Assembly: GCA_001792345.1 (NCBI GenBank)
Contig: MGGJ01000012.1
Span: 6,091 to 70,090 of the forward strand
Direction of reading: 5' to 3'
DNA length: 64,000 bases
Source: Candidatus Woesebacteria bacterium RIFCSPHIGHO2_01_FULL_39_32
GTDB taxonomy: Bacteria; Patescibacteriota; Microgenomatia; UBA8517
Under the pieces are notes generated by a model. The model saw only the letters and a list, made by a program, of their open reading frames with translations. It searched no databases and was not told where the DNA came from. Numbering within the stretch: the first letter of the stretch is position 1; every line of letters begins with the position of its first letter. This document shows positions 12,089 through 55,906 of this stretch, in pieces. The position numbers were made by a program, and so were the translations under genes.

Positions 12089-12133
12089 CGATATGCTATA
12101 GTTAATTTTCAATACGAAGGCAATTCACGAAAT

Positions 12134-39958: not shown

Positions 39959-42066
39959 GGCAGTTGCGTGGGAGTGGGACTTTGATCGGCTTCTTGATTA
40001 ACTTCGTTTTCCTCAATGGTTGTTGGGGTAGGCGTGATTACAGCTTCGGGTGGTTCTGATCCTTCCGGTAATTCTACGGGTGGTTCTAAACTTGGACCTT
40101 GTTCGCCTTGGGGAGGAGTCAATTCCTGTCCTTTGGCTGCAGCTTCTTGTTTCTTAGCCTGCAAATCTTCAAGAGCTTTTCTTGCAACCTCATAGTCGGG
40201 AGTATTTGGATCAAGAAGACTCACAGCAAGACTCATTTCGGATAGAGCTCTGTCAAGTTTCCCGGCATCCCTCAGCGCAAAAGATAAATTATAATGGGCA
40301 TTTGCATGATTTTGTTTGGATGCAACTGCTGATTCAAAGACTCTTACTGCACCATCATAATCTCTCAGAGTGTAATGGACACCACCCAAGGCAATTCTCA
40401 TGTTGGGGTTAAAAGGATCGAGTGCAACTGCTTGTCTATACGCTTGAAGGGTAAAATTGTCTGCTCCTTGAGCCAAGGGCATAATAGCTCGGTAAACCTG
40501 CGCCAATACTTCCCAGTTACCTGAACGGAGTGGGTTTAACGCAACTGTAGCTTTAGCCTCATTTATGGCTTGTTGGATTAGAAGTGTTATATTTTGGCGG
40601 TCCTGGTCAGTTATTTGGGTTGGTTGTTGCCCTTCGACTCCCTCCGGTCGCTCTGGGCCTGCGGCTTTCTGAGCTATTGCATTAGCTAGAGCTAAGTTTA
40701 TTCTGGCGAAAGTTGCATGGTAACGATCAACTGCTGGATTACCTCTAATAGCTTCCCGCATAGTATCATAAGTTTTGTTGGCGTTATTTGCTGCCAAATA
40801 GTCGAGTGCTTTTTTGAATTTATATTCCGCTGCTAAAACCCTTGATGCTCGATAACCGAAAAGGAGAGTTATAATAATTATCGGAACCGTAACCAGGAGT
40901 GCCGGGAATCGTGAGGCAACTATTTGAGTTGATACTCCTTGAACCTCGGTTCCTTGTGTTGTTAAGGATAGTGTTGTGTGGCGAGTTTTAGTGTTCAGCG
41001 CCAAAAGTACAAACAGAAGTACGATCAAAAGAATTGTGGCCGGTGCTAATAGTAATATGACTGCCAAAGTCAAGAGTGATACAAGGGAAGAACTGGCAGC
41101 AAAACCCCAATTAACCAATCTTTTTTCCTTGAAATCTTTTTTGGCCGTGCGATATAAAGTTAGAAAAAGAAGTACGATTCCAGCAAGGGCTAACATACCG
41201 GCTTCTGTTAGGGAAGTTAAATAGAAGCTTCTTGCAGTAGCGAATTTGACTGCCCAAAGATCGGTAAGGTTATAAGAAAGTGGTCGAAAACGGTTGAAAG
41301 CTGTAATATAATTTCCCGGTCCTACCCCAAAGATAGGGGATTCCTTAAGAGCATCAACTGCTATAAACCACGAAACTCCATAACTTGGAAATCTAGGGGA
41401 GCTGGTTCTACCCGGCAGAAGATTAAAAATTGATACTCCAAGTGCAAAAACTATAATTGCAATAGAGACCCCAAAAAAGATTTTTCTTGAGGAAATTTTT
41501 TCCGACAGTAGATGGCCGATAGCTATTGGAAGGACTACTCCAAGAAAAATTGCAGAAGGTAAATATCCTCCTTCCGGAGTAAAACCTGTTATTTTTAAAT
41601 AAGCTGGAAGCTGAGGTATTTTTGCGAAAACACCACTAAATGCTAAGAGTGTTAGTACTGAAAAAACTGATGCTGAACCGAAAAGAGTCATCGACAGATT
41701 TGTTTTTTCGTTTTCTTTGAGTTGGTTAATCAAAAAGTAGATAAGTACTCCTCCTACTACTGCTGTAGCAGTACCAGGAAGAAGAAAGGCTTCCATTTTA
41801 TTCGGAGTTCTTACTATTGCAGAAAGAAGAAAGGCGATAGCGATAAGTAGTACCGGGAAATCAAAGTTGCCAACCGAAAAATCAAGTTTCCCTGAAAAGA
41901 TTATTCTTAGCGACCTCGTTAGGAGTAAAAGCGCGACACCAAAAGATAGCACAGCAAGTTTTGAAACAACAAAGGGGTTGGGCGATATTGGAAGAACCGT
42001 AATAGGGAATAGGAATATTACCGCATATAATATGTACTTTTCTATTTGGGTTAGTAGTTTATCCAT
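39955..42066 (-). CDS. O-antigen ligase/polymerase-family membrane protein with C-terminal TPR repeats and Pro/Glu-rich tail
   Basis: About 12 TM. Wzy_C-like block ARSFYLTSLTEAGMLALAGIVLL. The C-terminal half has TPR-like repeats (AHYNLSFALRDAGKLDRAL etc.). Confidence 0.6.
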   Translation of the reverse strand: MDKLLTQIEKYILYAVIFLFPITVLPISPNPFVVSKLAVLSFGVALLLLTRSLRIIFSGKLDFSVGNFDFPVLLIAIAFLLSAIVRTPNKMEAFLLPGTATAVVGGVLIYFLINQLKENEKTNLSMTLFGSASVFSVLTLLAFSGVFAKIPQLPAYLKITGFTPEGGYLPSAIFLGVVLPIAIGHLLSEKISSRKIFFGVSIAIIVFALGVSIFNLLPGRTSSPRFPSYGVSWFIAVDALKESPIFGVGPGNYITAFNRFRPLSYNLTDLWAVKFATARSFYLTSLTEAGMLALAGIVLLFLTLYRTAKKDFKEKRLVNWGFAASSSLVSLLTLAVILLLAPATILLIVLLFVLLALNTKTRHTTLSLTTQGTEVQGVSTQIVASRFPALLVTVPIIIITLLFGYRASRVLAAEYKFKKALDYLAANNANKTYDTMREAIRGNPAVDRYHATFARINLALANAIAQKAAGPERPEGVEGQQPTQITDQDRQNITLLIQQAINEAKATVALNPLRSGNWEVLAQVYRAIMPLAQGADNFTLQAYRQAVALDPFNPNMRIALGGVHYTLRDYDGAVRVFESAVASKQNHANAHYNLSFALRDAGKLDRALSEMSLAVSLLDPNTPDYEVARKALEDLQAKKQEAAAKGQELTPPQGEQGPSLEPPVELPEGSEPPEAVITPTPTTIEENEVNQEADQSPTPTQLP

Positions 42067-42251
42067 GTTCTTAACTATATTTCTCTTTGGAAATACTTGT
42101 CAAGCCTCAATTTATATATATCAATAGTAAACTTTATATATAAAAGTATATTATTTAACTACTTAAGTTAGTAAAAAGATTACTTTTTACTACAATTATC
42201 AATCTCCAAATAATAATTTCCAAACAATCTACAATTTTCAAGCATCAAACC

Positions 42252-42623
42252 TTAAACGGATTTATTAATGATGGCGGATAAAATATTTCTTAACTCTTCG
42301 GATTCTTTTAATAGATCGTTAGCAATTTTTGTTTTATCGGGATTGGCTTCAATTATAAGTTCAAGCCAATAAATTGTTTCCTTGCTCTCTTTTCTAGCAA
42401 TTCTTAACTTGTGAATAAAATCTTTTTTTCCGAGTGAGTCGTTTGCTTCTCTATAGTTTGCACCAATGCTAGTTGAAGACCTTACTAACTGATTAATTAA
42501 ATTAAAATTAATAGTATTTTTGGGTAAGCCTTTACAAAAACGAATCCCATTTTTTGAAAATTCCAATGTTCTTTCTTCTAAATCATATTTTTTGTTTGAT
42601 GTTTGGGTATTGTTATTTGTCAT
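42252..42623 (-). CDS. Four-helix-bundle protein (23S rRNA intervening-sequence protein family)
   Basis: NQLVRSSTSIGANYREAN ... FIHKLRIARKESKETIYWLELI matches the family signature. Confidence 0.75.
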   Translation of the reverse strand: MTNNNTQTSNKKYDLEERTLEFSKNGIRFCKGLPKNTINFNLINQLVRSSTSIGANYREANDSLGKKDFIHKLRIARKESKETIYWLELIIEANPDKTKIANDLLKESEELRNILSAIINKSV

Positions 42624-42655
42624 TTGTTTGTTTCTTGAAATTTGGAATTTGCTTG

Positions 42656-45600
42656 TTAAGGGCTTCCTTCATTTGGTCCGAAGCGGAGTGCTCCTTCGTT
42701 GTAGACATTTCTTACCTGTTGGGCAGAAAGATCATAGTTGAAAATCTTGACATCGTCTATTTGACCATTGAAGTCATTATTTAAATAGCCACCAGCGCCT
42801 GCGTTCCCAAAGGATAGATCATCATTATTGACCATAGATGCGGTAGTGGGATCGGTTTGGTATCTGACACGTAGACCATCAATGTAAAGAGTGACAACAT
42901 CTTCTAAAACATCTCTTACTCCAACAATCAGATGCCAATTACCGTCGTTAACAGTTGACGTTCCACAAAGAGTCCGGGCAGCACCATCGTTCATGAGTAT
43001 ACAGGGTTGTTCGGAGGTATTTACCTCGAGATTAAAAGGATAGACCCCGATACCAGCAGCTTTGGCCACAATTGTACCGGAGTTAGTAGTATAGTTGGTC
43101 GTGGTTTTGAACCAGGCACTGACCGAATAGCTATGAGTTGTTTCTCCCAAATCGATTCCCGATCCTTCGGTAATTCTGACATTGTCGTCGGTTCCGTCAA
43201 AAGTAAGCCCAGTGTTACGTTTTCCGGTAGTCCAAGTGGTATTGCCGTTAAATGTTTGTGAATGGTAAGCGTTTCCACTTGAATCATTAGTGGTTGAGCC
43301 GGTATTTTCATCCATTTTCCACCATCCTTGTGGAGCACCGCGATTATATTCCCAAGAGATCTGAGGTTGAGTGCGGGCGTAGTTATAAATTCGAACATCA
43401 TCCAATTTGCCGCCTAAGTAATTGGTTGGTGTTGGATGTCTGGCCAGGTCGATTGAGTTGAGAGTATCGATATCGATAGTGCCTGATATAGTCAGAGTAT
43501 CTGTCTGTAATACGCCATCCACGTACATTTTGAGGATGCTGCCGTCATAAGTTCCCGCGACATGATGCCAACCGGAGGTAGCTGCAGTATTAGACGCAAT
43601 TACCCGAACCGTTGACTCTGTCCCATCTAGCCTGATTTGGAACACATATTTGTTATCAGAATTTCGCTTTCTTAATAAGGTAGTGCCCGCGTTTGAAGAA
43701 TTCATCCGATTGTAAAATTCGTGAGAGACACCATCCCCTGGATTATTCAGATCAACCCAAGCTTCAATGGTTATATATTGAGTGTTAAGAGAAGACGGTG
43801 TGCCTAGGGATATATAGTCGTCAGATCCATCAAAATCTAACGCACTTCCAAACTTACCGGGTACCCAATCACTATTGGTCATACTGCCATTCATTGTTCC
43901 GATGTTACTGTTACCCGAAGAATCATTAACATCGGTTGTGCCGGTATTTTCGTCAAATTTATAATGAGCGATAGGTGCAGTGCAAGCTGAACTTTGTCCG
44001 GGAGTACAATACTCGTTTGATGATGACCAGGTTGCATTACTGCTTGAGTCTGTTGATGTTGCTCCCCAAACAGCACTTGAGCTTTGGTTATATAGAACTC
44101 TTACTTGATCGGAAGTTAATGCTGAGCGGAATATTTGAACCTCGTCAATATCACCAATAAATTCATCCGTTCCTCCGGCTGATGCATCTTGTGCACCAAC
44201 AACTATAACGTCTGAATTTGATAAGTCTCCGGTAGCTGCTAAATTGGCATCGAAGCCAACTAATTGGCCATCGATGAATAACTCGATTTTTGAAGTACCT
44301 GTTTTGACGGCAACAGCGTGATGCCAGGTATTGTCATAGTAGTCCGTTGTGTTGCCGGCTGTATCTGCGGGTGTCCAAGTGCCGTCTGAATCAATTCCGA
44401 AAGTAATATAACCATTGGTTTGGGTTGCATATATGGCATAGCCGGTTCCGGTTTCTTTATCGATAAGGTACTCATTACCGGCTGAGGGATTAGTTGTACT
44501 GTCTGATTTAAACCAAAGACTTATTGAAAAATCCTGAGAAGCCGTAAAGTCAAAATCGGAATCATCCGCTCTTGACAACCATACATTTCCATTACCGTCC
44601 CAAGCTTTCCCATACTTACCTGAGTTGGTCCACCTTTGAGTAAGTTGGGTTAAACTATTTGTATTTCCGGATGAATCGTTGACGGTTGTACCATATCCTT
44701 CGTCAAATTTCCAATGGGCTACGGCACTGCCAACGGGGGACCCAGGAGCCGGGTGCCCGGCATTCATGTCTTCGATGATTTGGGCAGAGGTGCGAGCGTA
44801 ACGATATACCAGTACGTTGTCCACTTGACCAATAATACCGTTAGAATTATCGCTTATATGGAATGCCGTAGCATTGGAGTGATCGCCCGTATGGGTTTGA
44901 TTTGTTACTTTGTCAAACACCCCGTCGATATAATGGGAAATAGTTGGAGTAGCAGCACTTCCATTATAAACGCATGTGACGAAATGCCAATTGCCATCCG
45001 CGATGGTAGCATTACTGCCGAAGGTATCGGTTCCTGCAGCACTATCAGAAAGATCGCAACCTAACTTCCCTGTTGAAGTGAAACGCATCCGGTATCCGGG
45101 TGTGGTCCCTGCTAAATCTTTCCAAATAATAAGTTGGCTTGTAGCTGCATTGTCTGATTTTACCCAAGCTTCTAAAGTAAAATCGTCAGTACCGGCAAAA
45201 TCTAAAGACCCGTCTCCCGGATCGGGAACATTGACATAACTTGTCGCAATTGTAGAAAGTCCGCTGCCGATTTTCCCTGGTGCCCAGACAGGCCCGCCCG
45301 TGAGAGTACCGGTATTATCTTTTTCTCCGGAATCATTAGCGGCAGTTCCTGTGTTTTCGTCCAGCTTCCAATAACTAACAGGTCCCTGAGCCCAGTTATA
45401 GAGTCTCTCGACTTCCACGGGTTGCAAGACGCGGTTGTAGACTCTGACTTCATCCATCGTCCCATCAAAGTAGTTGCTTCCCTGCCTTCCAATATAGATT
45501 TGATTTGCAGTAATTGCTTGACTTGAAGAAACCGTAACGAGTTGCCAGGTATCCTGGGCGATTGTGCTTGATTCAACTCCGTTTACGTAAATCTTAGGAT

Positions 45601-46741
45601 TTGTGAAACCGGTTGCGGAGAGTATACCTGATGAAGAAGTCACATGTGCACCGCTATGTAAGCTAAGGTAATAGTTTGTAGTGCTATCGGGGTTTACCCA
45701 GAAAGAAACGGATTTGGCGCCCTGAATAGTGGTTGCGGTTGAAAAGTATTGGGTTGATGCAGGAACGTGCTCAGAGCCTCTGCCAAATTTTGCCCCCACA
45801 AAAGTAGTTGTACCGTTATTAGTTAAAGTGATTCCATTTCCGGACGAATCGGTTGCATTGCCGCTAGTTTCATCTAATTTCCAATAACCAACAAGGCCAT
45901 CAGAGAGGTAGGATTGATCAGGTCCGAATGAGGCGGAGGTTCCCCTAGAGGGAGTTTCACCGACATAGTCTGCTTTGATTTCTGTTGCTGTTCTTGCGGT
46001 TCTTAATACTTTAACTTCATCAATAAATCCACTCCATCCGTCGCTCGCAGCGTTATATATACCTATGTAGAAATTATCATCATTTGAGGCATCTGTTCCT
46101 GCCAAAGATGCATCAGTTCCTACCGATATAGCATTTATATATAGTGTAATTGAGGAAGTACCATTTTTAACTGCAGCAAGATGATGCCACTTGTTATCAT
46201 CGTAGGCAGAAGCACTTGTAACTGAATCGGACGGGAATGAAGTATTATTATTATCAATTCCAAATACAATTTGACCCGATGAGTTCATTGTTATTTTGTA
46301 GCCACCATCAGCACCTGTTGCCTCCTCTTTTGAGATCAAAGTTCTGGTACCGCTTGTAATATCAGGAGTTCTGAACCACAGTTCGACAGTTACGGTGTCA
46401 CTTGCTGCCATATCGAGGCTTGCACTATCGGAGTAGGAAACATAATCTCCTGTTCCGTCAAAATAAAGACATTTGCCAAATTTACAAAGATCTTCTGTTT
46501 TCCAAACGGCATTGGTTATTGTTCCTGCGGTTACGGTTGAGTTGGTATCGCTGGCTGAGGCTCCATAGCCTTCGTCAAAGCCAATATAAATATCTGCAGC
46601 TTGAACTTCCTTGACAGGGAAGAAGAAAAGCCTGAGGGAAGTTAATAGGACCAATATGACTAATAAGACGGATAATGCCTTGCGGCGGCGGGTGGCGGTA
46701 AGCCAGCGTATAAGTCTTATATGTCGTATGCGACTTATCAT
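42656..46741 (-). CDS. Giant (1361 aa) secreted/surface protein of tandem LamG/concanavalin-A-like lectin domains
   Basis: N-terminal signal-anchor. At least six repeats ending in a LamG-type block (DEVKVLRTA, DEVRVYNRVL, DNVLVYRYA, DEVQIFRSAL, DDVRIYNYA, DDVKIFNY), each preceded by a Gly/Thr/Ser/Asn-rich jelly-roll-like region. Confidence 0.7.
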   Translation of the reverse strand: MISRIRHIRLIRWLTATRRRKALSVLLVILVLLTSLRLFFFPVKEVQAADIYIGFDEGYGASASDTNSTVTAGTITNAVWKTEDLCKFGKCLYFDGTGDYVSYSDSASLDMAASDTVTVELWFRTPDITSGTRTLISKEEATGADGGYKITMNSSGQIVFGIDNNNTSFPSDSVTSASAYDDNKWHHLAAVKNGTSSITLYINAISVGTDASLAGTDASNDDNFYIGIYNAASDGWSGFIDEVKVLRTARTATEIKADYVGETPSRGTSASFGPDQSYLSDGLVGYWKLDETSGNATDSSGNGITLTNNGTTTFVGAKFGRGSEHVPASTQYFSTATTIQGAKSVSFWVNPDSTTNYYLSLHSGAHVTSSSGILSATGFTNPKIYVNGVESSTIAQDTWQLVTVSSSQAITANQIYIGRQGSNYFDGTMDEVRVYNRVLQPVEVERLYNWAQGPVSYWKLDENTGTAANDSGEKDNTGTLTGGPVWAPGKIGSGLSTIATSYVNVPDPGDGSLDFAGTDDFTLEAWVKSDNAATSQLIIWKDLAGTTPGYRMRFTSTGKLGCDLSDSAAGTDTFGSNATIADGNWHFVTCVYNGSAATPTISHYIDGVFDKVTNQTHTGDHSNATAFHISDNSNGIIGQVDNVLVYRYARTSAQIIEDMNAGHPAPGSPVGSAVAHWKFDEGYGTTVNDSSGNTNSLTQLTQRWTNSGKYGKAWDGNGNVWLSRADDSDFDFTASQDFSISLWFKSDSTTNPSAGNEYLIDKETGTGYAIYATQTNGYITFGIDSDGTWTPADTAGNTTDYYDNTWHHAVAVKTGTSKIELFIDGQLVGFDANLAATGDLSNSDVIVVGAQDASAGGTDEFIGDIDEVQIFRSALTSDQVRVLYNQSSSAVWGATSTDSSSNATWSSSNEYCTPGQSSACTAPIAHYKFDENTGTTDVNDSSGNSNIGTMNGSMTNSDWVPGKFGSALDFDGSDDYISLGTPSSLNTQYITIEAWVDLNNPGDGVSHEFYNRMNSSNAGTTLLRKRNSDNKYVFQIRLDGTESTVRVIASNTAATSGWHHVAGTYDGSILKMYVDGVLQTDTLTISGTIDIDTLNSIDLARHPTPTNYLGGKLDDVRIYNYARTQPQISWEYNRGAPQGWWKMDENTGSTTNDSSGNAYHSQTFNGNTTWTTGKRNTGLTFDGTDDNVRITEGSGIDLGETTHSYSVSAWFKTTTNYTTNSGTIVAKAAGIGVYPFNLEVNTSEQPCILMNDGAARTLCGTSTVNDGNWHLIVGVRDVLEDVVTLYIDGLRVRYQTDPTTASMVNNDDLSFGNAGAGGYLNNDFNGQIDDVKIFNYDLSAQQVRNVYNEGALRFGPNEGSP

Positions 46742-47304
46742 TTTTTCGCCTCCTTTCGAGAGTTATAGAGTCGCTCGGTGAAGCCACCCTTCTCAAGGAA
46801 ATCCTTTTCGAGTGTACGCAAGAGTTGGTCGAGAAGGAAGTTTTCTTGATGGATGAGACAGATAAGCGTATTGACGGCAGTCTCCGGATCTTCGCTTTCG
46901 ATATAGGTCTTATAAGTCATATACGACTTATGGGACATATAAGCGATCCTTCGGATAGCGATGACTCGTGGGTTATCTTTCCCCCAGATTCGGAGTCCTC
47001 TCTGGCGCAGAAAATCCTCGAAGTCTTCGAGTAGTTCCCCATAGCTCCCTCGAGCACTTCCTACCAATTTGAGTTCGAGTTTCTTTGAGGTGCCCGAGTT
47101 TAGACTACCTTCTGCAATGCATTGTTTTCCGCTTCTGGCAGCGCCATTCATCTGGCTAACAAGTTTCAGATCTTTTATCCACTTTCTGCAAAAGTACTCC
47201 GTACCGTCAGAAATAATGACAGCTGTTTTGTAAGCTTCCAGGTTCTTATACCCTCCGTGAGGAGGAATGAGTTTTGTATTTGTCGTATAAGTCTTATATG
47301 TCAT
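46738..47304 (-). CDS. Four-helix-bundle-like protein (second copy), with internal MTYKTYT repeat peptide
   Basis: SGKQCIAEGSLNSGTSKKLELKLVGSARGSYGELLEDFEDFL resembles the NIAEG...GS..E core of the four-helix-bundle family. Confidence 0.45.
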   Translation of the reverse strand: MTYKTYTTNTKLIPPHGGYKNLEAYKTAVIISDGTEYFCRKWIKDLKLVSQMNGAARSGKQCIAEGSLNSGTSKKLELKLVGSARGSYGELLEDFEDFLRQRGLRIWGKDNPRVIAIRRIAYMSHKSYMTYKTYIESEDPETAVNTLICLIHQENFLLDQLLRTLEKDFLEKGGFTERLYNSRKEAKK

Positions 47305-47340
47305 ATTTGTCTCACAATGCGAAGCAGTGCCAAGCTCCGC

Positions 47341-47706
47341 TTATCTTTTAAGTATTGCACTCATTGTGCTTTGAATAACGTCGTCAACTTTAATTGTCGC
47401 AGCATTCACTGTTGTGAATGTATTTTCTGGACTTCGCAAAAGCTGTAAGCCCAATGTGCCAATTACCACAATTGCGGAAACTAAGAGGAAGACACGGGTC
47501 GTATTTAGAAGGAGACTTTTTCTTCCTTCGAGTTCTCCCGTCATCCAGGCAAGTTTTATTGCGTCCAAAAGGCAGCCTTCTTGTCTTGTGAGTCCTTGCT
47601 TGCCAAGGTTTGGAAAACCATTAGGAAGGTTTTCCCAGTTGGGATTTGAAAAATTAAAGTTGCGAATAAATTTCTTGGTATAAGTCTTATAAGTCATATA
47701 CGACAT
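47341..47706 (-). CDS. Hypothetical single-TM protein beginning MSYMTYKTYT
   Basis: ORF with central TM (VFLLVSAIVVIGTLGL). The start overlaps a repeat copy. Confidence 0.3.
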   Translation of the reverse strand: MSYMTYKTYTKKFIRNFNFSNPNWENLPNGFPNLGKQGLTRQEGCLLDAIKLAWMTGELEGRKSLLLNTTRVFLLVSAIVVIGTLGLQLLRSPENTFTTVNAATIKVDDVIQSTMSAILKR

Positions 47707-47713
47707 ATTTGTT

Positions 47714-50700
47714 TTACCGCGATGCGGTAAGATCCACTATCCACCAGTTGAAAGTCACGTCAGTTACTGTTGGTAAGTCAAAGCCGACTACAATCTCTCC
47801 ATCTTTCTGCTCTTTTATATAAAGCACGTTATTCTGAGTTGGGGAAGTGGGAGTAACAAACACCAAAGAATTTGATTTAACGTTTGGATTTTTTATTGTT
47901 ACAACACTTGATCTGGAAGGAACTTTGGCGATGCCCGCTGAGGCCTCACTATGATAGATCATATCAGACAATATAGCGGAGGAAGTTGCATTTGGATCAT
48001 CTTTTATTGTAAGTCTATCGGTGGTTACTCCTTTAAACTCTGCAGAACCAGTAGCTGAGACTGATGCGACCTCGTCACCTAAGCTATTTGTTACACTCAA
48101 TAACTTTCCGAAATTTGTCAAATTCTCACTGTCGGCATCAAGCCTTAAACTCTTTGCAGAAAGTGTACCGCCGATTGTGACATCTCCTGCAATTTGTATA
48201 TTTCCAAGTGTGTCAATCTGGACTAAACCTGCCATTAAGTAAAGAGGTTGTGAAGCAGAAGATTGTATTGATAGGGGAGCATTTATGGTGTCAATATTGG
48301 TAGCAAGTAGCTGGTAGCTAGTATCTAGGGAAGATTGAATTACTAAATCAGAACCAACTACTATAGAATGCGTAACTGAGAGAGAATCAATTGCGGCTGT
48401 ATTGGTAACATAAAGATTTTCCAGCGCGAGCTCATTTAGGGATGCACTACCTGTTGCTGATGTCGGCCAACTTTGAGATTCCGCAAGAAGAGTTTGATTT
48501 GCTTCTACTTCGGCTAAAAGTCCTTCAATTTCTTCTCGAGTTAGGGAGTTTTGAGAGACAACCTCGTCAGCAATTACTTTTCCAACTCGTAGTTCGCCTG
48601 CGATTGAGGCCTCATTTGTTTTCAGACTATCGCTTGCTAACTTTCCCGAGAAAGTTGCGCTTCGGGCGCTAATATCACCCTCAGTGTAAACATTTCCGAT
48701 TTCATCTACCGAAGCAACCGTTTTTCCACTAGAGTTTTTGAGAAGTAACTTTCCAAACGATGGTTGATTTGGATCACCAATTTGAATTGCAATATCTTTT
48801 TCTCCATCCAAAGGTTTTATTTCTTTAGTTAGTACTTGGGGAGAAACCAAACCTACTTTTACCAGCATTCTGTCAACTGTACCTTGGAAGGCGGTAAATC
48901 CATCAGTAATTATTTTTGTAAGACCGGAGAGTTTATCAATTAAATTTCCATCTTTGTCAATAAGCTTTTGGTAGCCTTCATTTTGCATATCCTCAGCAAG
49001 TTTTATATCTCCGGAATCAGTGAGAGTCCCTAGTGGTTCAAACCAAGAGTTATTAATAAATACAGTTATTAAATCTTTTCCTGATCCTGGGCTCCATGGT
49101 TCAAGGGCCTGACCTATGACTCTTCCATTACTTTGGGATTTCATTGCAAGGCCAGGTTCCGGACTTGTTGTTAAATAATCCCCAGGAATAATTGGACCAG
49201 AATTTTGAGAGATTTTAACCGGTACGCGACCTGCAAGAGCAATGGGGTATCCTGGGGCCTCTCCAAGTACAATTCCGGGATTAGTTGATACAACTCCAAC
49301 AACTCTTGATTCATAGGCTGAAGCGCTTTTTATGACGTGTTCGGGATTTTCAGGATCAACTTTGACTACCTCTCCAGGTGAAAGAGACTGGATGCTGGGG
49401 AAAAACTCAGCAATATCAACCCCATCGGTATTGTCGCTGTTGTTTGCTGAGGCATCCATCCATCCGAGTAAATTCCAGTTTGTACCGTCGTATATTAAAA
49501 ATAACTGGTCTCCTGTGGCAAAGGCAGTAATGTCGGTCGTTCCACAATTTATATTTGAAGAAGTACAGTCAAGGTCAAAATTTGCAGCAGTGGATATCTC
49601 TATATATATAATTTGCCCCGCTGTACCATTTGTGAAGTTTGTAACTAATCTATTGGTACTATTGTTTTCCAAGAAGTGTGACCCTCCCGCGACAGATGGG
49701 GTAACACTATCGCCAAGTGTTTGTTGTGAATCCAGCGCAAAAGCACCTTGGACTATCATTTGACCCGTTGCGGGAAGGTCAAAGACTATGTCACCCGAAT
49801 TGTAAGTTTTAAGTGTAAGGTTATTACTTTCAAAAGATTCACCGGCACGAACGGTCAAAGGACCGTAGCTGTCAATTGTTGATGCGGTTTGATTAGTAAA
49901 AATTAAATCATATGCTATTGAGACATCTCCTGCGGCTGTGAATTCGTGGGGGAGCGCGGAGGTTATTTTGGCTGTATCAACGCTGAAAAGCTCAGATGAA
50001 TTATCGTAAAGCGCAAAAAGATTTCCGGTTAGGTCTCCATATTGACCAATGTTTACTTTGACCAAATCACCGCTTGCCGTTGCCCATGTTGTTGGAGACC
50101 AGTCAAAAAGTCCCAAGTTTCCTGAGGTTAACGAAGTAGCCGTTGAATTAACTTTAAGAAGCGATCCGGTTGTCCAGGTATTAGAACTTCCCGTATTAAG
50201 ATTAAGCAGTGTACCTGTCGTTAAAGTGGAGGATGTTATACCAAATACATCGCCTGTTGTTGTTACATCAGAAGTTATATCGGCAACTCCACCTGCGGCG
50301 GTTTCAATTCCATAAGCTTGGAAGCTTGCAGAAGCGGTTGCTGTTCCACCGACCAATAAGTCCCATGTGGAGTTTCCAGGAGAAAGCATAACACTGCTTC
50401 CCAATTGCCAGTAATTTGTTCCACTACCCGTATCGTCCGTTCCACAGTCCCATTCAAAATTTGTGTTATCCCATTCTAAAATACCTCCTGCTGCACATCC
50501 TCGAATTAGGGTTAGCTCACCATTTCCGTCGAATTCCAATCCTGATGTAGATGAAGTTGTTGAACCGTCGGCAGCAGTTGTATCAAGGTCGACTTGTAAT
50601 ACGTTGGACGCTACCTCCAGACCACTTCCATTGAAGTCGTTAATGCTATCACCGGATATTACAATAAAATTATCACCCAAACTAATGCCATTGAAAAGTT

Positions 50701-53700
50701 CTGGGTCTGATACGTTTATTGCAGTGGTTGAAGTGTCGGTCGCAGTCGCGGTAATTTCTAAATAATTAGAAATTGTGTTGCCAGTGGTTTCAAGATTTGC
50801 GAGATAAATAAGATTTTCTGTAAGTCCGTTAGCAGCATCGTCAAAATTGTAAACAGTAATACCCTTTTGAGTTCCTCCCGAGCTTGCATTAGTCAATTTA
50901 ACGTTGATCATCTCAACACTATTTGATCCAGTTATGGTATTGGTAATTGCTAGATTTTCTGTCTCGGTTAAGGTAAGCGTTACGTCGTCGTTGAAAGTCG
51001 CACCGCCGGTAAAAGAAAAGTCACTATCAGAGTTATCGTCTGTTGTAAAAGTAAACTGAGTCGCACTAGCAGATCCAAGTGATAAAGCTCTTGCTCCTGC
51101 TGTGCCGATATTTATATTTTGAGCAATAGCATCATTACCTATTGAAATTACTCCGGCAGATGAATTAAGTTCCAATACTCCCGTAGCATCAACTAGTAGT
51201 GTATCTGCTGAAGAGAGAATTAAATCTCCCGCTGAACCTGTTACTGCAATAGTTAGATCTTCCGCATCGGCGTCTGCAGCAACAGAAATATTGCTTGCTC
51301 CCGTTGCTCCTGTTACGTCAATCGATAAGGATGTTAATGCATCAAGAGTAAAGCCTCCAGCTGTTGCATCAAGATTAAGAGCTGACGCTCCGGTTCCTGC
51401 TGAAGACATTGCAATTTCTTGTGCTCCACCTCCTGCTGCTGACAGAGTAAGACTTTGCCCAGAGCCTGTAACTGTGAAGTTAGAAGCGGAAGTTGCATCA
51501 AGTGATATAGCAACGGCATCGGCAGTTATTGAAGTTACGTCGGCACTTCCTAATGCAATTGCTCCTGCACCAGTTGGGTCTATTGTTAATGTTTCCGCAT
51601 CTGATGTTGTGATTAACGCTGATGCATCGTTGTATCCCAGTGTCAAATCAGCAGCTTGAATGAGTCCATTCCTTGTTAAATTAAATACAGTAGTTCCCGA
51701 AGCACTAGCTGAGAGGATATTCTGGTTGGTTCCGGTGTCGTTGAATATTGCCAGAGCCCTGCCTGCACGGGTTCCTGTTACAGTGAATAATCCATGAATA
51801 GCAGATTCGGTAACGGTTCCGATGCCAACTCCCAAAAGAGTAGCACCATTATTCGGGTAGAGGAGGCTATTGGCTTCTGTCCATTTGCTTTCACCCGAGC
51901 CGCCTGTTGTTATCCAGCCGCAGTTTGCCTGGTCTTTGTCACACAAAAGTCTGTCGCCCCAGAAAAGGTCTTCGCCGGCAGTTCCACCTGCTGCTGCAAC
52001 CCCGAGGAGATTAAAGGCATTGGCGTCATTATTTAAGCCTATGGTAGTCCCATATACATCCAGTACATCACCATCTGCAATGATTACATTGCCGCCAGTT
52101 GGATTAAAAGTCAGATCTGTTGTTCCGCCCGTTGTTATTGACCCGACGCCCACAAAATCCAATGAATTAATATCAAGGATGGTTCCTTCAATTGAAATAT
52201 TACCCAAGTTCCCATCGTCATTAATAGTTATTGCACCCGTTGTACCACTTACATCAAATTCGGTTGTATCAACTGCAAATGAATCGCCGCCGTCGCCGAA
52301 GATCATTGCACCACCTGGTGTTAAAGTAAATGCTCCAGTAGTAGTAAATGTTGTACTTGCACCGTCAAAGGCTATATTGGTATCGGCAATTGTTACATCG
52401 CCATTGCTGTCAAGTGCACCGTCAAGATATGTTGTCCCGTCGACCTCCAATGAATCTGTAATGTAAAGATCAGATCCGTCTCCGATTGCAGCACCACCTG
52501 CATCTCCTGTTCCTATGGTATTGTATGCATTGCCATCAGGAGAAGAGTCACCAAAAGAAAACACGCCGTCTGCCGAAAGATTGCCGCTTCTGTCTAAATT
52601 CATGACAGTAGTTCCCGAAGCACTAGCTGAGAGGATATTTTGATCAGTACCAGTATCATCTAATACGACAAGAGCTTTTCCACCCTCCGTTCCAGTTACT
52701 GTAAGATTGCCAATAGAGTCGCCCGCTGTTGTTGAACCAACAAGTACATTGTATGTAGCAGCATCAGGGTATATTACAGAACCTGAAAGGGTCCAGACGT
52801 CGGATCCACTTCCTGCTGAACACACCACTACATTATTACTTCCGTCTATACAAAGACCGTTGCCCGTCGAAGAGGATAAACCGGATATTACAAAGGTGCT
52901 ATCAGCATCTGTTGTAAATGTAATATCTGCAGTCGATTGGGGAGAGAAACTTATAGAAGAATCATCCGAAAAAGTAGCAAAAGGAGTCCCGGTGTCTTGC
53001 AAAACAAAATCTCCTGTACCATCCAGGTCAAAGGTAAAGTTATTGGCCCCTAGGTTAACTTCTGTGGCAGCATCTAAATCAAGTGTATCCTGGAATTCTG
53101 TAAAGTCGAGAATATCGTCCGCAACCGAGATATTTATTTCGTTAGTAGGAGATGCGGTAAGAGTAAAATCGGTACTGAAATCTAGAGTGTCTACATTTGT
53201 ACCGATAGGTGTATCATTAGTTTCGACGTTTATTATTGCGCTAGTTGCTCCTGTGTCGTTGCTACATTCCCACAAATCAGTAGTCTCATTCCATTTAAGA
53301 ATTTGTCCTGTTGCACAACCCTGAAGTAAAGTTAAGCCCGAGGATAAGACCTCAAGTCCTGACGAAGATGAGGTTGTGGATGAAAGCGCATCAGTTGCTG
53401 ATGTTAAATCTATAGTTAATAATCCCGATGAAACTTGTAATCCATTACCTGAAAAGTCGGAGATTGCTTCGGAGTTAACAGTTATACTTCCGGCAAGGGT
53501 TAGATTTCCTGAATTATCGACAGTTAAAAGATCGGTTCCAGTTGAGTTTTCAAAGACCACTAGGTTTGTGCTCTGAGTAGAATTTCCTTGAACTAGAAGC
53601 TGGATTTCATTTGCATCACCGTCAACTGCCAACTTTCCAAGTTCAGTTGTACCTCCAACGGTAACACTGTCGGTCGTATTTGTTAAGTAAACAAAACCTG

Positions 53701-55294
53701 TATCTTGTGTCCATTTTGAAGCACCGGAACCGATTGCGGCATCTAAATCATCCAAAACGTCCTGTACATTTGAAGAGCTGGAATTTGCAAACTCATCAAA
53801 GGTTCCGACTAGTGATGCCCCGGAGTTAGTTGGTCCCGTCCCGGTATCATTAAGTCCAATTGTACCAATAGTTAAATCCTGACCAGAGGCGATTGTTACC
53901 CCGCCTGAATCTGTTGTTAAAGAATCTAAAGTTAGATTCCCAGTTGAAACATCAAAGAAAAATGGCGCAGTAGAATCTGTTCCACCAAAAGCTAAATCGT
54001 CTGTTGTAGAAGTTAAATAGGTGATAGCTCCTCCATCTGTCCAGAGGTTGGTCCCACCAGTTTGATCTACTGCCCAGGTAAAACCGCTGGTTGACGAATT
54101 GTAAGTTAATACATATGCATTAGTAGGGGAGTTTGATACATTTAGATCTACTTCTTTGATTGTATCGTCTATTATTTCTGAAGACTCTATGGAAGTTCCG
54201 AGGGTGGTTTGCAAACTACCTGAAGAAACCTGTAGACCAGTTCCGGTTAAGTCATTTACGGAATCGCTTCCTACAACAAGGGAGCCGTCTAACTCCAGGT
54301 CGCCAGTAACAAAAAGATCATCTCCTAATAGGTCAATGGTGCTTTGTGTTCCAGTACCTATTTTTACCCCGCCACCACCAGGATCAATTGTCAAATCATC
54401 TCCCGAGGAAAGTGTGTTACCAGATAGATTTAATGTTCCTGCAATGTCGTTCGTATTTCCATTTACATCGATTGAGTTTTCTATAGTAGTAGTTCCGGAT
54501 GTTGCTCCGATTGTGATGTCAGTTGCAGCACCCCCAATATTAAGTGTACTTACACCTGAATTGACAAAATTAAAGTCAGTTGAAGTACTGGTGATATCAC
54601 CTCCGTTTGCGTCTATGTTTCCCAAAAAGCTCGCGTCTTCTTGAAATTCGCTTTCTATAAAAACTTTGAATGAAATATTTTGGAAGGAAGTTGCGGCGAG
54701 AACCACAGCCTCCTTATCTTGTATCTCTTCTTTCAACTGGTCAATTCCACTCTTTTCGGTTTTTTCTGAAGGTAAAAATAAAGAGATTCTTTCTTTAATA
54801 CTGTTAACAGGTTCAGGAAGTTTAATATTTGTGTTCGAGATTACTTTGGTCAGAGGATTCAAAAGCAAAAGAATTAATCCAAAAGTTGTAAAAGTCAAAA
54901 ATATTTTTTTAGAGGATTTCGGTATCGATTTGTAAATAGGGGAAAGGCTGAAGCTTTCCTTTTGGGTATTTGTCTCTAGAGTTTTAGGGGTCAAAGTTTC
55001 TGTTGACTCTGGTGGTATTTTTATCTCCGCATCCAACGGAAAAAGGCGCGAATAATCTAAGGCAGACTTTCTTTTTAGAGAATTCTTTTTAAATTCTTTT
55101 AGATAGGGAAGTAGGTAACGTCGGTGACCACCTGATGTTCTTATTGCTGACAACCTTCCACTTTTCTCCCATCGTCTAAGGGTCTTTCCTGATACCGAAA
55201 GGTATTCAGAAGCTTGTTTTATGGTTAGAAGATTTTGGGCAGACATTTTATATTTTATTTGGGTATTTAAATTTTGGACATGGATATTGGACAA
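47714..55294 (-). CDS. Giant (2526 aa) surface protein: cytoplasmic excisionase/MerR-like HTH, TM anchor, then ~2350-aa Gly/Thr/Ser/Asp-rich repetitive extracellular region (beta-helix/fibre-like)
   Basis: N-terminus LTIKQASEYLSVSGKTLRRWEKSGRLSAIRTSGGHRRYL (HTH). TM FLTFTTFGLILLLLNPL. Long low-complexity repeats (TGTG..., GGT..., LTLD...). An alternative start at the internal Met (55246) aligns with paralog 777..1316. Confidence 0.7.
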   Translation of the reverse strand: MSNIHVQNLNTQIKYKMSAQNLLTIKQASEYLSVSGKTLRRWEKSGRLSAIRTSGGHRRYLLPYLKEFKKNSLKRKSALDYSRLFPLDAEIKIPPESTETLTPKTLETNTQKESFSLSPIYKSIPKSSKKIFLTFTTFGLILLLLNPLTKVISNTNIKLPEPVNSIKERISLFLPSEKTEKSGIDQLKEEIQDKEAVVLAATSFQNISFKVFIESEFQEDASFLGNIDANGGDITSTSTDFNFVNSGVSTLNIGGAATDITIGATSGTTTIENSIDVNGNTNDIAGTLNLSGNTLSSGDDLTIDPGGGGVKIGTGTQSTIDLLGDDLFVTGDLELDGSLVVGSDSVNDLTGTGLQVSSGSLQTTLGTSIESSEIIDDTIKEVDLNVSNSPTNAYVLTYNSSTSGFTWAVDQTGGTNLWTDGGAITYLTSTTDDLAFGGTDSTAPFFFDVSTGNLTLDSLTTDSGGVTIASGQDLTIGTIGLNDTGTGPTNSGASLVGTFDEFANSSSSNVQDVLDDLDAAIGSGASKWTQDTGFVYLTNTTDSVTVGGTTELGKLAVDGDANEIQLLVQGNSTQSTNLVVFENSTGTDLLTVDNSGNLTLAGSITVNSEAISDFSGNGLQVSSGLLTIDLTSATDALSSTTSSSSGLEVLSSGLTLLQGCATGQILKWNETTDLWECSNDTGATSAIINVETNDTPIGTNVDTLDFSTDFTLTASPTNEINISVADDILDFTEFQDTLDLDAATEVNLGANNFTFDLDGTGDFVLQDTGTPFATFSDDSSISFSPQSTADITFTTDADSTFVISGLSSSTGNGLCIDGSNNVVVCSAGSGSDVWTLSGSVIYPDAATYNVLVGSTTAGDSIGNLTVTGTEGGKALVVLDDTGTDQNILSASASGTTVMNLDRSGNLSADGVFSFGDSSPDGNAYNTIGTGDAGGAAIGDGSDLYITDSLEVDGTTYLDGALDSNGDVTIADTNIAFDGASTTFTTTGAFTLTPGGAMIFGDGGDSFAVDTTEFDVSGTTGAITINDDGNLGNISIEGTILDINSLDFVGVGSITTGGTTDLTFNPTGGNVIIADGDVLDVYGTTIGLNNDANAFNLLGVAAAGGTAGEDLFWGDRLLCDKDQANCGWITTGGSGESKWTEANSLLYPNNGATLLGVGIGTVTESAIHGLFTVTGTRAGRALAIFNDTGTNQNILSASASGTTVFNLTRNGLIQAADLTLGYNDASALITTSDAETLTIDPTGAGAIALGSADVTSITADAVAISLDATSASNFTVTGSGQSLTLSAAGGGAQEIAMSSAGTGASALNLDATAGGFTLDALTSLSIDVTGATGASNISVAADADAEDLTIAVTGSAGDLILSSADTLLVDATGVLELNSSAGVISIGNDAIAQNINIGTAGARALSLGSASATQFTFTTDDNSDSDFSFTGGATFNDDVTLTLTETENLAITNTITGSNSVEMINVKLTNASSGGTQKGITVYNFDDAANGLTENLIYLANLETTGNTISNYLEITATATDTSTTAINVSDPELFNGISLGDNFIVISGDSINDFNGSGLEVASNVLQVDLDTTAADGSTTSSTSGLEFDGNGELTLIRGCAAGGILEWDNTNFEWDCGTDDTGSGTNYWQLGSSVMLSPGNSTWDLLVGGTATASASFQAYGIETAAGGVADITSDVTTTGDVFGITSSTLTTGTLLNLNTGSSNTWTTGSLLKVNSTATSLTSGNLGLFDWSPTTWATASGDLVKVNIGQYGDLTGNLFALYDNSSELFSVDTAKITSALPHEFTAAGDVSIAYDLIFTNQTASTIDSYGPLTVRAGESFESNNLTLKTYNSGDIVFDLPATGQMIVQGAFALDSQQTLGDSVTPSVAGGSHFLENNSTNRLVTNFTNGTAGQIIYIEISTAANFDLDCTSSNINCGTTDITAFATGDQLFLIYDGTNWNLLGWMDASANNSDNTDGVDIAEFFPSIQSLSPGEVVKVDPENPEHVIKSASAYESRVVGVVSTNPGIVLGEAPGYPIALAGRVPVKISQNSGPIIPGDYLTTSPEPGLAMKSQSNGRVIGQALEPWSPGSGKDLITVFINNSWFEPLGTLTDSGDIKLAEDMQNEGYQKLIDKDGNLIDKLSGLTKIITDGFTAFQGTVDRMLVKVGLVSPQVLTKEIKPLDGEKDIAIQIGDPNQPSFGKLLLKNSSGKTVASVDEIGNVYTEGDISARSATFSGKLASDSLKTNEASIAGELRVGKVIADEVVSQNSLTREEIEGLLAEVEANQTLLAESQSWPTSATGSASLNELALENLYVTNTAAIDSLSVTHSIVVGSDLVIQSSLDTSYQLLATNIDTINAPLSIQSSASQPLYLMAGLVQIDTLGNIQIAGDVTIGGTLSAKSLRLDADSENLTNFGKLLSVTNSLGDEVASVSATGSAEFKGVTTDRLTIKDDPNATSSAILSDMIYHSEASAGIAKVPSRSSVVTIKNPNVKSNSLVFVTPTSPTQNNVLYIKEQKDGEIVVGFDLPTVTDVTFNWWIVDLTASR

Positions 55295-55310
55295 TTAGAT
55301 TCAAAATGGG

Positions 55311-55347
55311 TATATTCATTACCACACATTTAGGGTTACTTTGTCAA
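55311..55347 (-). promoter_or_regulatory. Candidate promoter of the giant gene (minus-strand TTGACA-N17-TGGTAATGA)
   Basis: Reverse complement of 55311-55347 reads cTTGACAaagtaaccctaaatgtgTGGTAATGA. Confidence 0.25.
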
Positions 55348-55830
55348 GTAGATTTTTTCTTTTATATATAGTTGTCAGAGAACCAGAATACTCAGAAAAC
55401 TAGGAGAACTTAGGGAATCAGAAATCCAGGTGACCAGAAAGCCTGAAACCTGTAATTGTAGGGTTTATTTAGTTTCGGATACTCCAGTATTCTAAGTTAT
55501 CTGGTACCCCGTTTTATTAGAATCTAAGAATTTAGCTTCAGACCTCTACAATTAGGTATAAAAAGCAAACACTTAATATTTCCGTAAAATAAACGCAAGC
55601 AAATTGGAGAACGAAAAAAAAGAATATATTATTATTTTGCGGTAAAAAGCGGAGAATATAGTAAGTAAATTTTTACTATGCTTTTAATTGCGGAGATTAT
55701 TTAGGAAATCTTTTAAAATATAAACAAATCTATGTAATCTTATATCAATAAATTTAATGGACAATAATTCTGTTTGAGTTAAAACAATATTTTATATCAT
55801 CGGTTTGTATTTTTTAAAAAAACAAACCTA

Positions 55831-55859
55831 TTGATTTTTAGAATTTATATCTCTAGTAT
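55831..55859 (+). promoter_or_regulatory. Candidate promoter TTGATT-N17-TAGTAT upstream of 55907 gene/atp cluster
   Basis: Hexamers with 17-nt spacing, ~45 nt upstream of the start codon. Confidence 0.3.
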
Positions 55860-55906
55860 AAAAAGTAATAATATTCACTTTTTTAGATTAAACTTATGAT
55901 CGTAAT

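Follow-up and report, generated by a model that had tools for sequence, protein, structure and literature searches.

Five copies of a short palindromic repeat lie in and around a small gene of Candidatus Woesebacteria bacterium RIFCSPHIGHO2_01_FULL_39_32, within a 64,000-nt stretch of contig MGGJ01000012.1 (positions 6,091 to 70,090) that is here called the window. The gene encodes a 188-aa four-helix-bundle 'suffix' protein (TIGR04258) and stands in a string of genes that are all co-directional on the minus strand, between a giant gene followed by the small ORF121 and a second giant gene with a LamG domain. We are confident that the repeat is real and local, and that it is properly described as a palindrome of nine-nucleotide units, conserved at the nucleotide level inside the TIGR04258 gene and recurring at the borders of that gene. 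The evidence comes from the copies in the window, from the codon usage of homologous genes in many phyla and from the positions of the copies that flank these genes.

A palindromic repeat of nine-nucleotide units

A first-pass annotation of the window had reported a 27-bp palindromic repeat occurring four times between the two giant genes. A search with GTATAAGTCTTATAWGTCATATACGAC at up to 3 mismatches bears this out: the 64 kb contain four matching sites and no more, each on the + strand (46708-46734, 46901-46927, 47285-47311 and 47678-47704), as compared to 0.00 in shuffled sequences. The coordinates first given were a few bases off, and a fifth, inverted copy had been overlooked at 46639-46674, where 19 of 21 consensus positions are matched by a (TATnRGnCY)x3 score and a period of 9 is found with TRF. 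Searching for the 13-nt core at up to 1 mismatch produced 9 matches in the window, all inside 46709-47700, versus 0.23 expected. The five copies span 1.1 kb and none is found elsewhere in the window.

Both the repeat search and TRF detected a 9-nt period inside each copy. Three units TAT-nR-GWC-n form a palindrome of about 29 nt (27-29 nt in the family), so that the dyad first noticed in the core is present and extends well beyond its 13 nt; in the repeat search of the window interval, the arms are 16 nt long and 88% complementary. The family consensus is ATAGGTCnTATnnGACnTATArGACCTAT. The window copies are an AT-rich form of it, with AAG/CTT, in which the unit reads TATAAGTCn on the + strand and (K/M)(S/T)Y triplets on the minus (coding) strand. 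They are placed as follows:

46639-46674, + strand: copy 5, inverted relative to copies 1-4, LamG codons 23-35 (LSVLLVILVLLTS)
46708-46734, - strand: copy 1, LamG codons 3-12, SRIRHIRLIR, in a different frame
46898-46946, - strand: copy 2, in the four-helix-bundle-suffix gene, whose helices 3 and 4 it joins as an in-frame linker (aa 124-134, KSYMTYKTYI)
47285-47311, - strand: copy 3, holding the ATG (47304) of the four-helix-bundle-suffix gene, MTYKTYT
47678-47708, - strand: copy 4, three and a third nonamers after the ORF121 ATG, codons 2-10, SYMTYKTYT (MSYMTYKTYT)

The distance to copy 1 is 7 nt from the LamG ATG and 4 nt from the TGA of the four-helix-bundle-suffix gene. The LamG signal peptide owes its hydrophobic core (LSVLLVILVLL) to copy 5, and ACAAATATGAC.TATAAGACTTATAC is common to copies 3 and 4. 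The repeat had been described as overlapping three start codons: three copies are indeed located at 5' ends, whereas copy 2 is internal to the 188-aa ORF. The repeat reads MTYKTYT in ORF121 and in the 188-aa ORF, and RHIRLIR in another frame at the N-terminus of the LamG protein.

The linker copy is conserved at the nucleotide level

In a profile search, the 188-aa ORF matches TIGR04258 with 71.2 bits (cut-off 40) over aa 140-187. It scores below threshold for PF05635 (21.9 versus 33.8) and TIGR02436 (17.7 versus 24); the linker insertion splits the bundle. An AlphaFold2 model of the protein, with a mean predicted confidence (pLDDT) of 85, has the S23/IVP bundles 2GSC and 2RLD as best PDB matches (probability ~1.0, template modelling score on the target 0.74-0.82) and matches the S23/IVP pentamer fold. 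The isoelectric point (pI) is 9.3, and 9.1-9.9 in the family. The 188-aa ORF is a four-helix-bundle suffix protein of the superfamily of 23S rRNA IVPs (intervening-sequence proteins). A word-index search returned more than 7900 matches, the best 120 of them at 56-99% identity, and an exhaustive search at E<=1e-3 found, in this subfamily alone, 2676 cluster representatives. We drew 80 genome loci from Planctomycetota, Nitrospirota, Desulfobacterota, Verrucomicrobiota, Acidobacteriota, the candidate phyla radiation (CPR) and others; loci are designated below by L numbers. Homologues occur in the cultured strains Geomobilimonas luticola JCM 17780 (L079) and Hydrosulfovibrio ferrireducens CB1MN (L077).

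The linker copy was found in 53 of 62 homologous genes from many phyla, where it joins helices 3 and 4 in frame. Its peptide (R/K)SYxTY(K/R)TYI hardly varies in the protein alignment, Y128, Y131 and Y134 included; these tyrosines are modelled in a short helix (pLDDT 82-95). The same tripeptide triplets are present at the N-terminus, at the C-terminus or in the helix 1-2 loop of many family members. Codon usage within the linker departs strongly from that of the remainder of the genes. Tyrosine is encoded by TAT 155 times and by TAC 8 times (95% TAT) as compared to 205:172 (54%) in the rest of the same genes, and arginine by AGG in 53 of 61 cases (87%) as compared to 120 of 980 (12%). Residue x is variable (M, T, L, E, K, S and others), yet G is the last base of its codon in 57 of 61 sequences. 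Averaged over the gene, third-base entropy is 1.51 bits, and it is clearly depressed only at residues 125-134, where AAT is fixed at 97%, AGG at 90% and TAT at 91-95%; TAT and GWC, each recurring with the 9-nt period, are the conserved positions. As judged from these alignments, the synonymous sites of the linker copy are frozen, and selection at the nucleotide level across the family is strongly supported. The first-pass annotation had already argued for nucleotide-level rather than peptide-level conservation, and the fixed TAT, AGG and third-base G under a variable residue in some 60 homologues sustain that view.

Outside the linker, a copy lies within 150 nt upstream of the gene in 17 of 62 loci and at or just after the stop codon in about 19 of 62, with 6 copies only elsewhere in ~480 kb of flanks. 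The repeat score gave 485 matches in gene-bearing loci versus 3 in shuffled sequences. Upstream, downstream and linker copies share one consensus and one polarity (GTC, GAC, GAC), and copies that follow the stop overlap the start codons of neighbours in other frames. The repeat had first been tied to the giant genes of the window. It belongs instead to the small gene, and accompanies the four-helix-bundle-suffix gene into CRISPR, restriction and housekeeping operons.

Two proposals concerning the gene were rejected. An internal start codon in the linker is not retained, the variable codon being ATG or TTG in a minority of members only; a phage origin is not retained either, because viral contigs contain no relative of the gene. 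Variant subfamilies (L037, and the first gene of L040 and of L058) carry at the same linker another 9-nt palindromic unit, GTGTCWGAC (core GTCWGAC), with the peptide SDVSD. The flanks of L055, L061, L064 and L080 contain 9-nt periodic arrays of ATGGGACnn, GTCCCACnn and TAGGACAnn. In all these variants GAC or GGAC returns every 9 nt.

Hairpin-forming potential

The 29-mer palindrome is centred on the middle unit, and 85% of cells are paired across 57 linker copies. Folded as RNA, the linker has a mean minimum free energy of -8.9 kcal/mol versus -4.0 for synonymous recodings of the same peptide, and its z score is below -1.64 in 62% of sequences. The covariation score of the whole-element hairpin is 0.148 versus 0.116 in shuffled sequences, a weak signal that genome GC content could explain, and an alternative hairpin between units 1 and 2 shows no covariation. 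The element is a dyad or a hairpin; on sequence grounds, RNA, single-stranded DNA and duplex forms would all be compatible with it. A search of Rfam 15 with positions 42000-56000 of the window gave no match at E<=1, and in array-bearing loci all matches, to eukaryotic and viral RNA families, were sub-threshold and well below gathering scores.

Two different copies in Amesbacteria have a GC hairpin (AAGCAAAGCTTGGCCGGCTACGCCGGTAAG) at their centre, by which the stem is lengthened; a related hairpin is located in the window at 47340-47312. An identical 27-nt insert is centred in two repeat copies in L241/L242, one in the ORF121 homologue and one in the LamG N-terminus. This module, AAGCrrAGCTTGGCC - stem-loop - GGTAAG, occurs only in Microgenomates loci (47312-47340 of the window, L081 4955-5005, L241 5016 and 6032), and its stem differs by species.

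Copies at cistron junctions and reuse as coding sequence

Downstream copies lie in the +1 frame relative to the gene in 16 of 20 cases; its stop codon TAG or TAA then falls inside the repeat (A-TAG-G), and the downstream gene starts in the canonical repeat frame. The AGG(A) found 5-6 nt before the ATG of the next unit would have the spacing of a Shine-Dalgarno (SD) sequence. In the window, the stop TAA of the upstream giant gene is 7 nt upstream of the ORF121 ATG, and the LamG ATG overlaps the TGA of the 188-aa gene (ATGA stop/start). ORF121 and the 188-aa gene lack an SD sequence, the LamG gene has its own AAGGAGG, and no promoter- or terminator-like sites were found at the copies (46.7-47.7 kb). 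A role in translation initiation or as an RNA structural element, which had been among the first suggestions, is plausible, with a linker hairpin stabler than its recodings and copies at stop/start junctions.

The downstream neighbours in 47 loci are Cas4 (14), HsdR (3), HsdS (2), LamG (2), Cas1, Csm6 and assorted housekeeping genes. Close Cas4 homologues have either an unextended N-terminus (MYSEDDL) or a repeat-extended one (MTNKTYxYTEDDL), and many are extended. In the two extended cases examined, the four-helix-bundle-suffix gene is located between cas7 and cas4; in the two unextended ones, a Bro-N gene is located there, without a four-helix-bundle-suffix gene. One unextended locus (L103) retains a 14-codon remnant (MTNQKDFPQLIPSH) corresponding to the start of the four-helix-bundle gene. 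The Bro-N gene replaces the suffix gene at the cas7/cas3-cas4 junction of the type I-C CRISPR loci L103 (3069-3192) and L104 (2639-2670), and RhuM, YoeB/YefM and a bAvd-like four-helix-bundle gene are inserted elsewhere in these operons (L103, L105 and L106).

Copies also occur in frame inside LamG (L032) and HsdM (L036) genes, and the N-termini of LamG orthologues are repeat-encoded as in the window (MNIRRIRLIRL, MRPIKLIRQ, MISPISRMGRIS). Read in the LIx frame, repeat DNA gives hydrophobic segments, namely the transmembrane helix of the ORF121 homologues P0391-P0395 (LISLISLIGLIRLIS) and the core of the LamG signal peptide. Here the repeat looks like material reused as coding sequence.

Gene order and structural variation around ORF121

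The genes of the interval, and the hairpin between two of them, are the following:

42252-42623, - strand: second four-helix-bundle gene, of the plain type (PF05635, 73.5 bits), immediately behind the LamG gene, no nonamer repeats
42656-46741, - strand: LamG-domain giant protein, 1361 aa, first 12 codons and signal-peptide core repeat-encoded
46738-47304, - strand: four-helix-bundle-suffix gene, 188 aa, TIGR04258 match
47312-47340, - strand: intercistronic GC hairpin (AAGCGGAGCTTGGC...) between ORF121 and the four-helix-bundle-suffix gene
47341-47706, - strand: ORF121, small membrane protein, identical to A2715_02670 of Candidatus Woesebacteria RIFCSPHIGHO2_01_FULL_39_32, with copies 4 and 3 on either side
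47714-55294, - strand: upstream giant protein, 2526 aa, with an N-terminal MerR/excisionase helix-turn-helix (HTH), its stop directly before copy 4

A tetratricopeptide repeat (TPR) membrane protein of 703 aa follows the second four-helix-bundle gene on the minus strand. The best promoter-like site of the region, TTGACA-18-TATAGT (42074-42103, minus strand; 11 of 12 matches), lies upstream of the TPR gene and suggests that the transcription unit running from the giant gene to the second four-helix-bundle gene ends there. HTH domains are found at the N-termini of very large non-regulatory proteins of the window, MerR/excisionase HTH in the 2526-aa surface protein and HTH_28/HTH_23 in a 1529-aa glycosyltransferase (4353-8942, + strand), and a separate 179-aa MerR-HTH protein is encoded at 777-1316 (minus strand). 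No recombinase, transposase catalytic domain or reverse transcriptase was found among the Pfam families listed for the window (25 of 45 families, plus 10 further ORFs), and PADLOC gave no meaningful match.

Microgenomates loci keep the order giant - (ORF121) - four-helix-bundle-suffix - LamG - four-helix-bundle, with repeats at the same junctions in relatives whose suffix protein is 70-85% identical to that of the window and in an Amesbacteria locus. The layout giant - suffix - LamG - four-helix-bundle is also seen in L087-L090, the operon being punctuated by these small genes. ORF121 occurs in the window and in L081 and L241, and is absent from L083-86, L087-94 and L095; in the loci that lack it, the stop of the giant gene lies inside a repeat directly before the four-helix-bundle gene. 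The indel is bounded by copies 4 and 3. ORF121 forms a family of 8 clusters, restricted to Microgenomates, with repeat-coded N-termini and a transmembrane helix in the LIx frame. Its identity with A2715_02670 assigns the window to a CPR bacterium from groundwater. In L020, fabG is bracketed by copies in the same way. No inversions bounded by copies were seen. A Y1_Tnp gene of the IS200/RAYT type, not flanked by repeats and not seen in the other loci, occurs 2.6 kb downstream of the suffix gene in one related lineage, L083 (8612-9310) and L084 (7264-7962). Fusion in frame by recombination between the linker and the 3' copy was rejected for the window, as the frame of copy 1 does not match that of LamG.

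Stand-alone copies in other organisms

The exact pattern TAGGWCCTATAGGWCCTATAGGWCC gave at least 120 matches in metagenome contigs and 12 in viral contigs, and we examined 80 loci among the former. The four-helix-bundle-suffix gene was present in 5 of these 80, always at 300 nt or less from the array, and it is missing from 25 loci in which each flank extends over at least 1.7 kb. The usual form is a three-unit palindrome in either orientation (central bases T-A-A 13, T-T-A 11). Stand-alone sites include stop codons, intercistronic spacers, positions in frame inside adenylation (A) domains of non-ribosomal peptide synthetases (NRPS; L122) and inverted arrays, with arrays of 5-26 units. Four matches were false positives, in collagen-like GPI repeats. 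There was no common mobiliser beside the arrays, Pfam assigning 116 neighbouring ORFs to unrelated housekeeping families.

The GC-rich three-unit palindrome ATAGGTCCTATAGGWCCTATAGGACCTAT lies beside housekeeping genes in L109-L188 (metagenome) and L229-L240 (viral), and long arrays or array/inverted-array hairpins are found in L123, L124, L131, L136, L140 and L144. In L122, the repeat stands in frame in one and the same loop (EKF-YRSYRSYRTYI-NYKTGDLARW) of three NRPS adenylation domains, at 2717-2765, 5784-5837 and 12111-12155.

Other metagenome contigs contain dispersed copies of the GC-rich form, ~0.06 extra ones per kb. The first-pass annotation had considered that the repeat might be ubiquitous in its genome; in the 64 kb of this genome examined it is not, while its GC-rich version is dispersed in other organisms. 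A REP-like dispersed form therefore exists elsewhere, and in the sequence examined from this CPR lineage the element keeps to the four-helix-bundle locus.

Interpretation and alternatives

The anatomy of the loci leads us to favour, tentatively, a hairpin cis element that would couple cistrons and would probably be recognised by the basic Avd-like protein. The element would act as a hairpin, formed by the transcript or by single-stranded DNA. Where two cistrons meet, it would be a compact adaptor in which TAG or TAA in one frame ends the upstream gene and AGG(A), 5-6 nt before the ATG in the next unit, starts the downstream one, allowing a promoter-less gene to sit inside an operon with tight translational coupling. 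With a unit of 9 nt and two of the three coding-strand frames open, copies would be tolerated and put to further use as coding sequence; they could serve as an N-terminal extension, as a basic stretch at the start of a signal peptide or as a hydrophobic helix. Within a locus, copies may duplicate and exchange sequence, which would have yielded the bracketed ORF121. The frozen copy inside a gene whose product is basic and Avd-like suggests that the protein recognises its own element. That the suffix proteins are in general the cognate binding, possibly mobilising or processing, factor of nonamer palindromes, the gene keeping a master copy in its own frame, is a further reading that we consider doubtful.

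Several observations weigh against the cis-element reading. The GC-rich palindrome is abundant without the gene (75 of 80 loci) and gene-bearing loci show no dispersed copies, which weakens a one-protein-one-site model. On each side, only about one locus in three has a flanking copy. Flanking copies resemble the linker of their own locus only slightly more than other linkers (0.52 versus 0.44); with so weak an affinity, we do not claim copying of the linker into its own flanks as a general rule. The RNA folding first proposed as a check gave, as described above, a linker hairpin stabler than its recodings, but in the window copy 2 alone folds significantly (-14.3 kcal/mol, z -4.3). Most stem pairs are invariant, and the one pair that varies freely is unpaired in 51% of sequences. 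With stem covariation so weak, the symmetry could equally be that of a double-stranded DNA site bound by a protein. Lastly, the linker tyrosines are conserved and belong to a predicted short helix, so that part of the constraint is on the protein.

The main rival is a selfish DNA repeat resembling REP (repetitive extragenic palindromic) sequences or miniature inverted-repeat transposable elements, with the suffix gene as its partner, as REP-associated tyrosine transposases (RAYT) are for REPs, and with junction and coding copies as passengers without a role in expression. The many exact GC-rich palindromes near unrelated housekeeping genes, at stops, in frame in NRPS, LamG and HsdM and in inverted arrays speak for it, as do the near-equal frequency of the two orientations, the flanking of the gene by copies and the high conservation of the gene across phyla in very different operons. 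We nevertheless hold it to be rather unlikely: there is no dispersal in the 64 kb of this genome examined or in the flanks of the 80 gene-bearing loci, array-rich contigs mostly lack the gene, the protein has no recognisable HUH/Y1 or other nuclease motif, and the same four junctions have kept their copies in Woesebacteria, in Amesbacteria and in their relatives, which argues for selection rather than drift. A pure REP-RAYT reading in particular was lowered, since dispersed copies are missing from gene-bearing loci, and the gene from array-rich contigs. Site-specific recombination sites delimiting cassettes would account for other features. The geometry ATAGGTCnTAT - 7 nt - ATArGACCTAT (11-bp inverted arms around a 7-bp asymmetric spacer) fits that of dif, lox or attC, the direct repeats have one polarity and separate co-directional, promoter-less ORFs, and recombination between direct copies could insert or delete ORF121, the four-helix-bundle gene or its halves, as the ORF121 indel and the replaced cassette at the cas7-cas4 junction would illustrate. 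The first-pass idea of a recombination site shuffling the 5' ends of the genes thus keeps some indirect backing, from the presence or absence of ORF121 between copies and from exchange between copies. It is improbable all the same, for there is no integrase or recombinase among the Pfam families listed for the window and none recurrent in the loci, no inversions were seen, arrays of 5-26 units are unlike core sites, the ORF121 arrangement is stable across Woesebacteria, Amesbacteria and the related loci that carry ORF121, and exchange between linker and flank would destroy a conserved gene.

Selection might also act on the protein, on an x-(S/T)-Y tripeptide repeat, the outside copies being by-products of 9-bp slippage or duplication without a nucleic-acid function. 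The nearly invariant tyrosines with their modelled helix, and the recurrence of the same peptide at the termini or in the helix 1-2 loop of many members, speak for this explanation. However, it leaves unexplained why synonymous codons are fixed (TAT, AGG, AAT, and the third-base G under a variable residue), why the same DNA occurs in other frames (IRLIR, LIxLI, SPIGPI) and in non-coding spacers, and why a variant subfamily holds a different 9-nt palindromic unit (GTCWGAC) at the same place, and we regard it as highly improbable. An operator through which a transcription factor, for example the MerR-type HTH of the 2526-aa protein, would co-regulate the two giant genes had been proposed at the outset. 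Dyad symmetry and the HTH domains of the window agree with such a role, yet the copies lie within a co-directional gene string and inside ORFs, with no promoter-like sites at 46.7-47.7 kb, and where a locus has neither giant genes nor HTH proteins the small gene still has the element with it; this explanation is hardly credible.

Relation to known systems

REP sequences are defined by GTAG or CGTC tags and by their RAYT partners, and have been surveyed in Enterobacteria and Pseudomonas (PMC3733652). As in REPs and bacterial interspersed mosaic elements (BIME), the element is a 20-40-bp imperfect stem-loop palindrome (29 nt, paired as described for the 57 linker copies), located mostly just downstream of coding regions between co-directional genes and sometimes inside genes, probably in high copy number in some genomes, and one protein-coding gene is typically flanked by its own repeats. 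In contrast to REPs, its consensus lacks a GTAG or CGTC tag. The element in the window is made of expandable tandem 9-nt units, is local in the 64 kb of its genome examined and has a conserved copy in the frame of the partner, and the flanked gene encodes a four-helix bundle without recognisable HUH/Y1, with no Y1_Tnp among the Pfam families listed for the window. Rickettsia palindromic elements (RPEs) measure 100-150 bp, are lineage-restricted and have no partner gene. They are palindromes inserted in frame that contribute peptide segments, and are cited in the same REP survey (PMC3733652). The present element resembles RPEs as an in-frame palindromic repeat, but it is 27-29 nt long, occurs in many phyla and is tied to one gene family.

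Avd of diversity-generating retroelements, which binds reverse transcriptase and RNA (PMC10053308), is a basic four-helix bundle of the same superfamily. No reverse transcriptase domain is present among the Pfam families listed for the window ORFs, and the repeats are 27 nt long and not adenine-variable; the repeat search of 46000-48500 found 27-nt repeats only and was not aimed at template/variable repeats. IVP/S23 ORFs (PF05635) are present in intervening sequences of 23S rRNA, including CPR rRNA insertions (10.1101/2024.02.27.582315). There too a small ORF of this superfamily is embedded in another transcription unit and bracketed by pairing sequences, whereas here a four-helix-bundle-suffix gene lies in mRNA operons, with nonamer-palindrome flanks and an extra conserved copy inside the ORF. 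In the accessible parts of two reports, 23S_rRNA_IVP genes are placed in cas loci next to Cas4/Cas6 (PMC3936711) and listed as CRISPR-linked (PMC10910872). The Cas4 neighbours in 14 of 47 loci and the gene between cas7 and cas4 in type I-C loci agree with this; the same parts give the protein association alone, without the repeat or the repeat-coded Cas4 N-termini, and the window copy lies in a surface-protein/glycan operon instead. The attC sites of integrons and the dif/pdif sites of Xer are likewise short imperfect palindromes between promoter-less co-directional ORFs, with similar 11-7-11 arms. The present element differs from them by the lack of GTTRRRY R/L boxes, a sequence unlike dif, its tandem-unit array and its conserved intragenic copy, and no integrase was found among the Pfam families shown for the window or related loci. 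No description of the repeat was found in the literature searched with DNA and peptide strings and family names, which yielded only the associations of the protein with cas loci and rRNA insertions. The widespread family of small hairpin-forming repeats made of 9-base units is thus apparently undescribed.

Significance

For annotation, the 9-nt modular palindrome can supply stop, SD-like and start signals, and can be reused as signal-peptide or transmembrane coding sequence. The repeat explains odd N-terminal extensions (MTNKTY- on Cas4, MISRIRHIRLIR- on LamG) and spurious SPIGPIGPI/YRSYRSY ORFs. In its stand-alone GC-rich form, it may represent a new class of REP-type repeats that have neither the GTAG nor the CGTC tag. 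Four-helix-bundle genes of the IVP/S23 kind abound, and for years they have been recorded within rRNA insertions and beside Cas4; an element frozen at synonymous sites within the gene, and repeated at its borders, provides a concrete candidate ligand. If the cognate-factor reading is true, it would amount to a REP-RAYT-like pairing with a non-HUH four-helix bundle, and would give a function to the IVP/S23 proteins found in rRNA insertions, CRISPR-cas loci and restriction operons.

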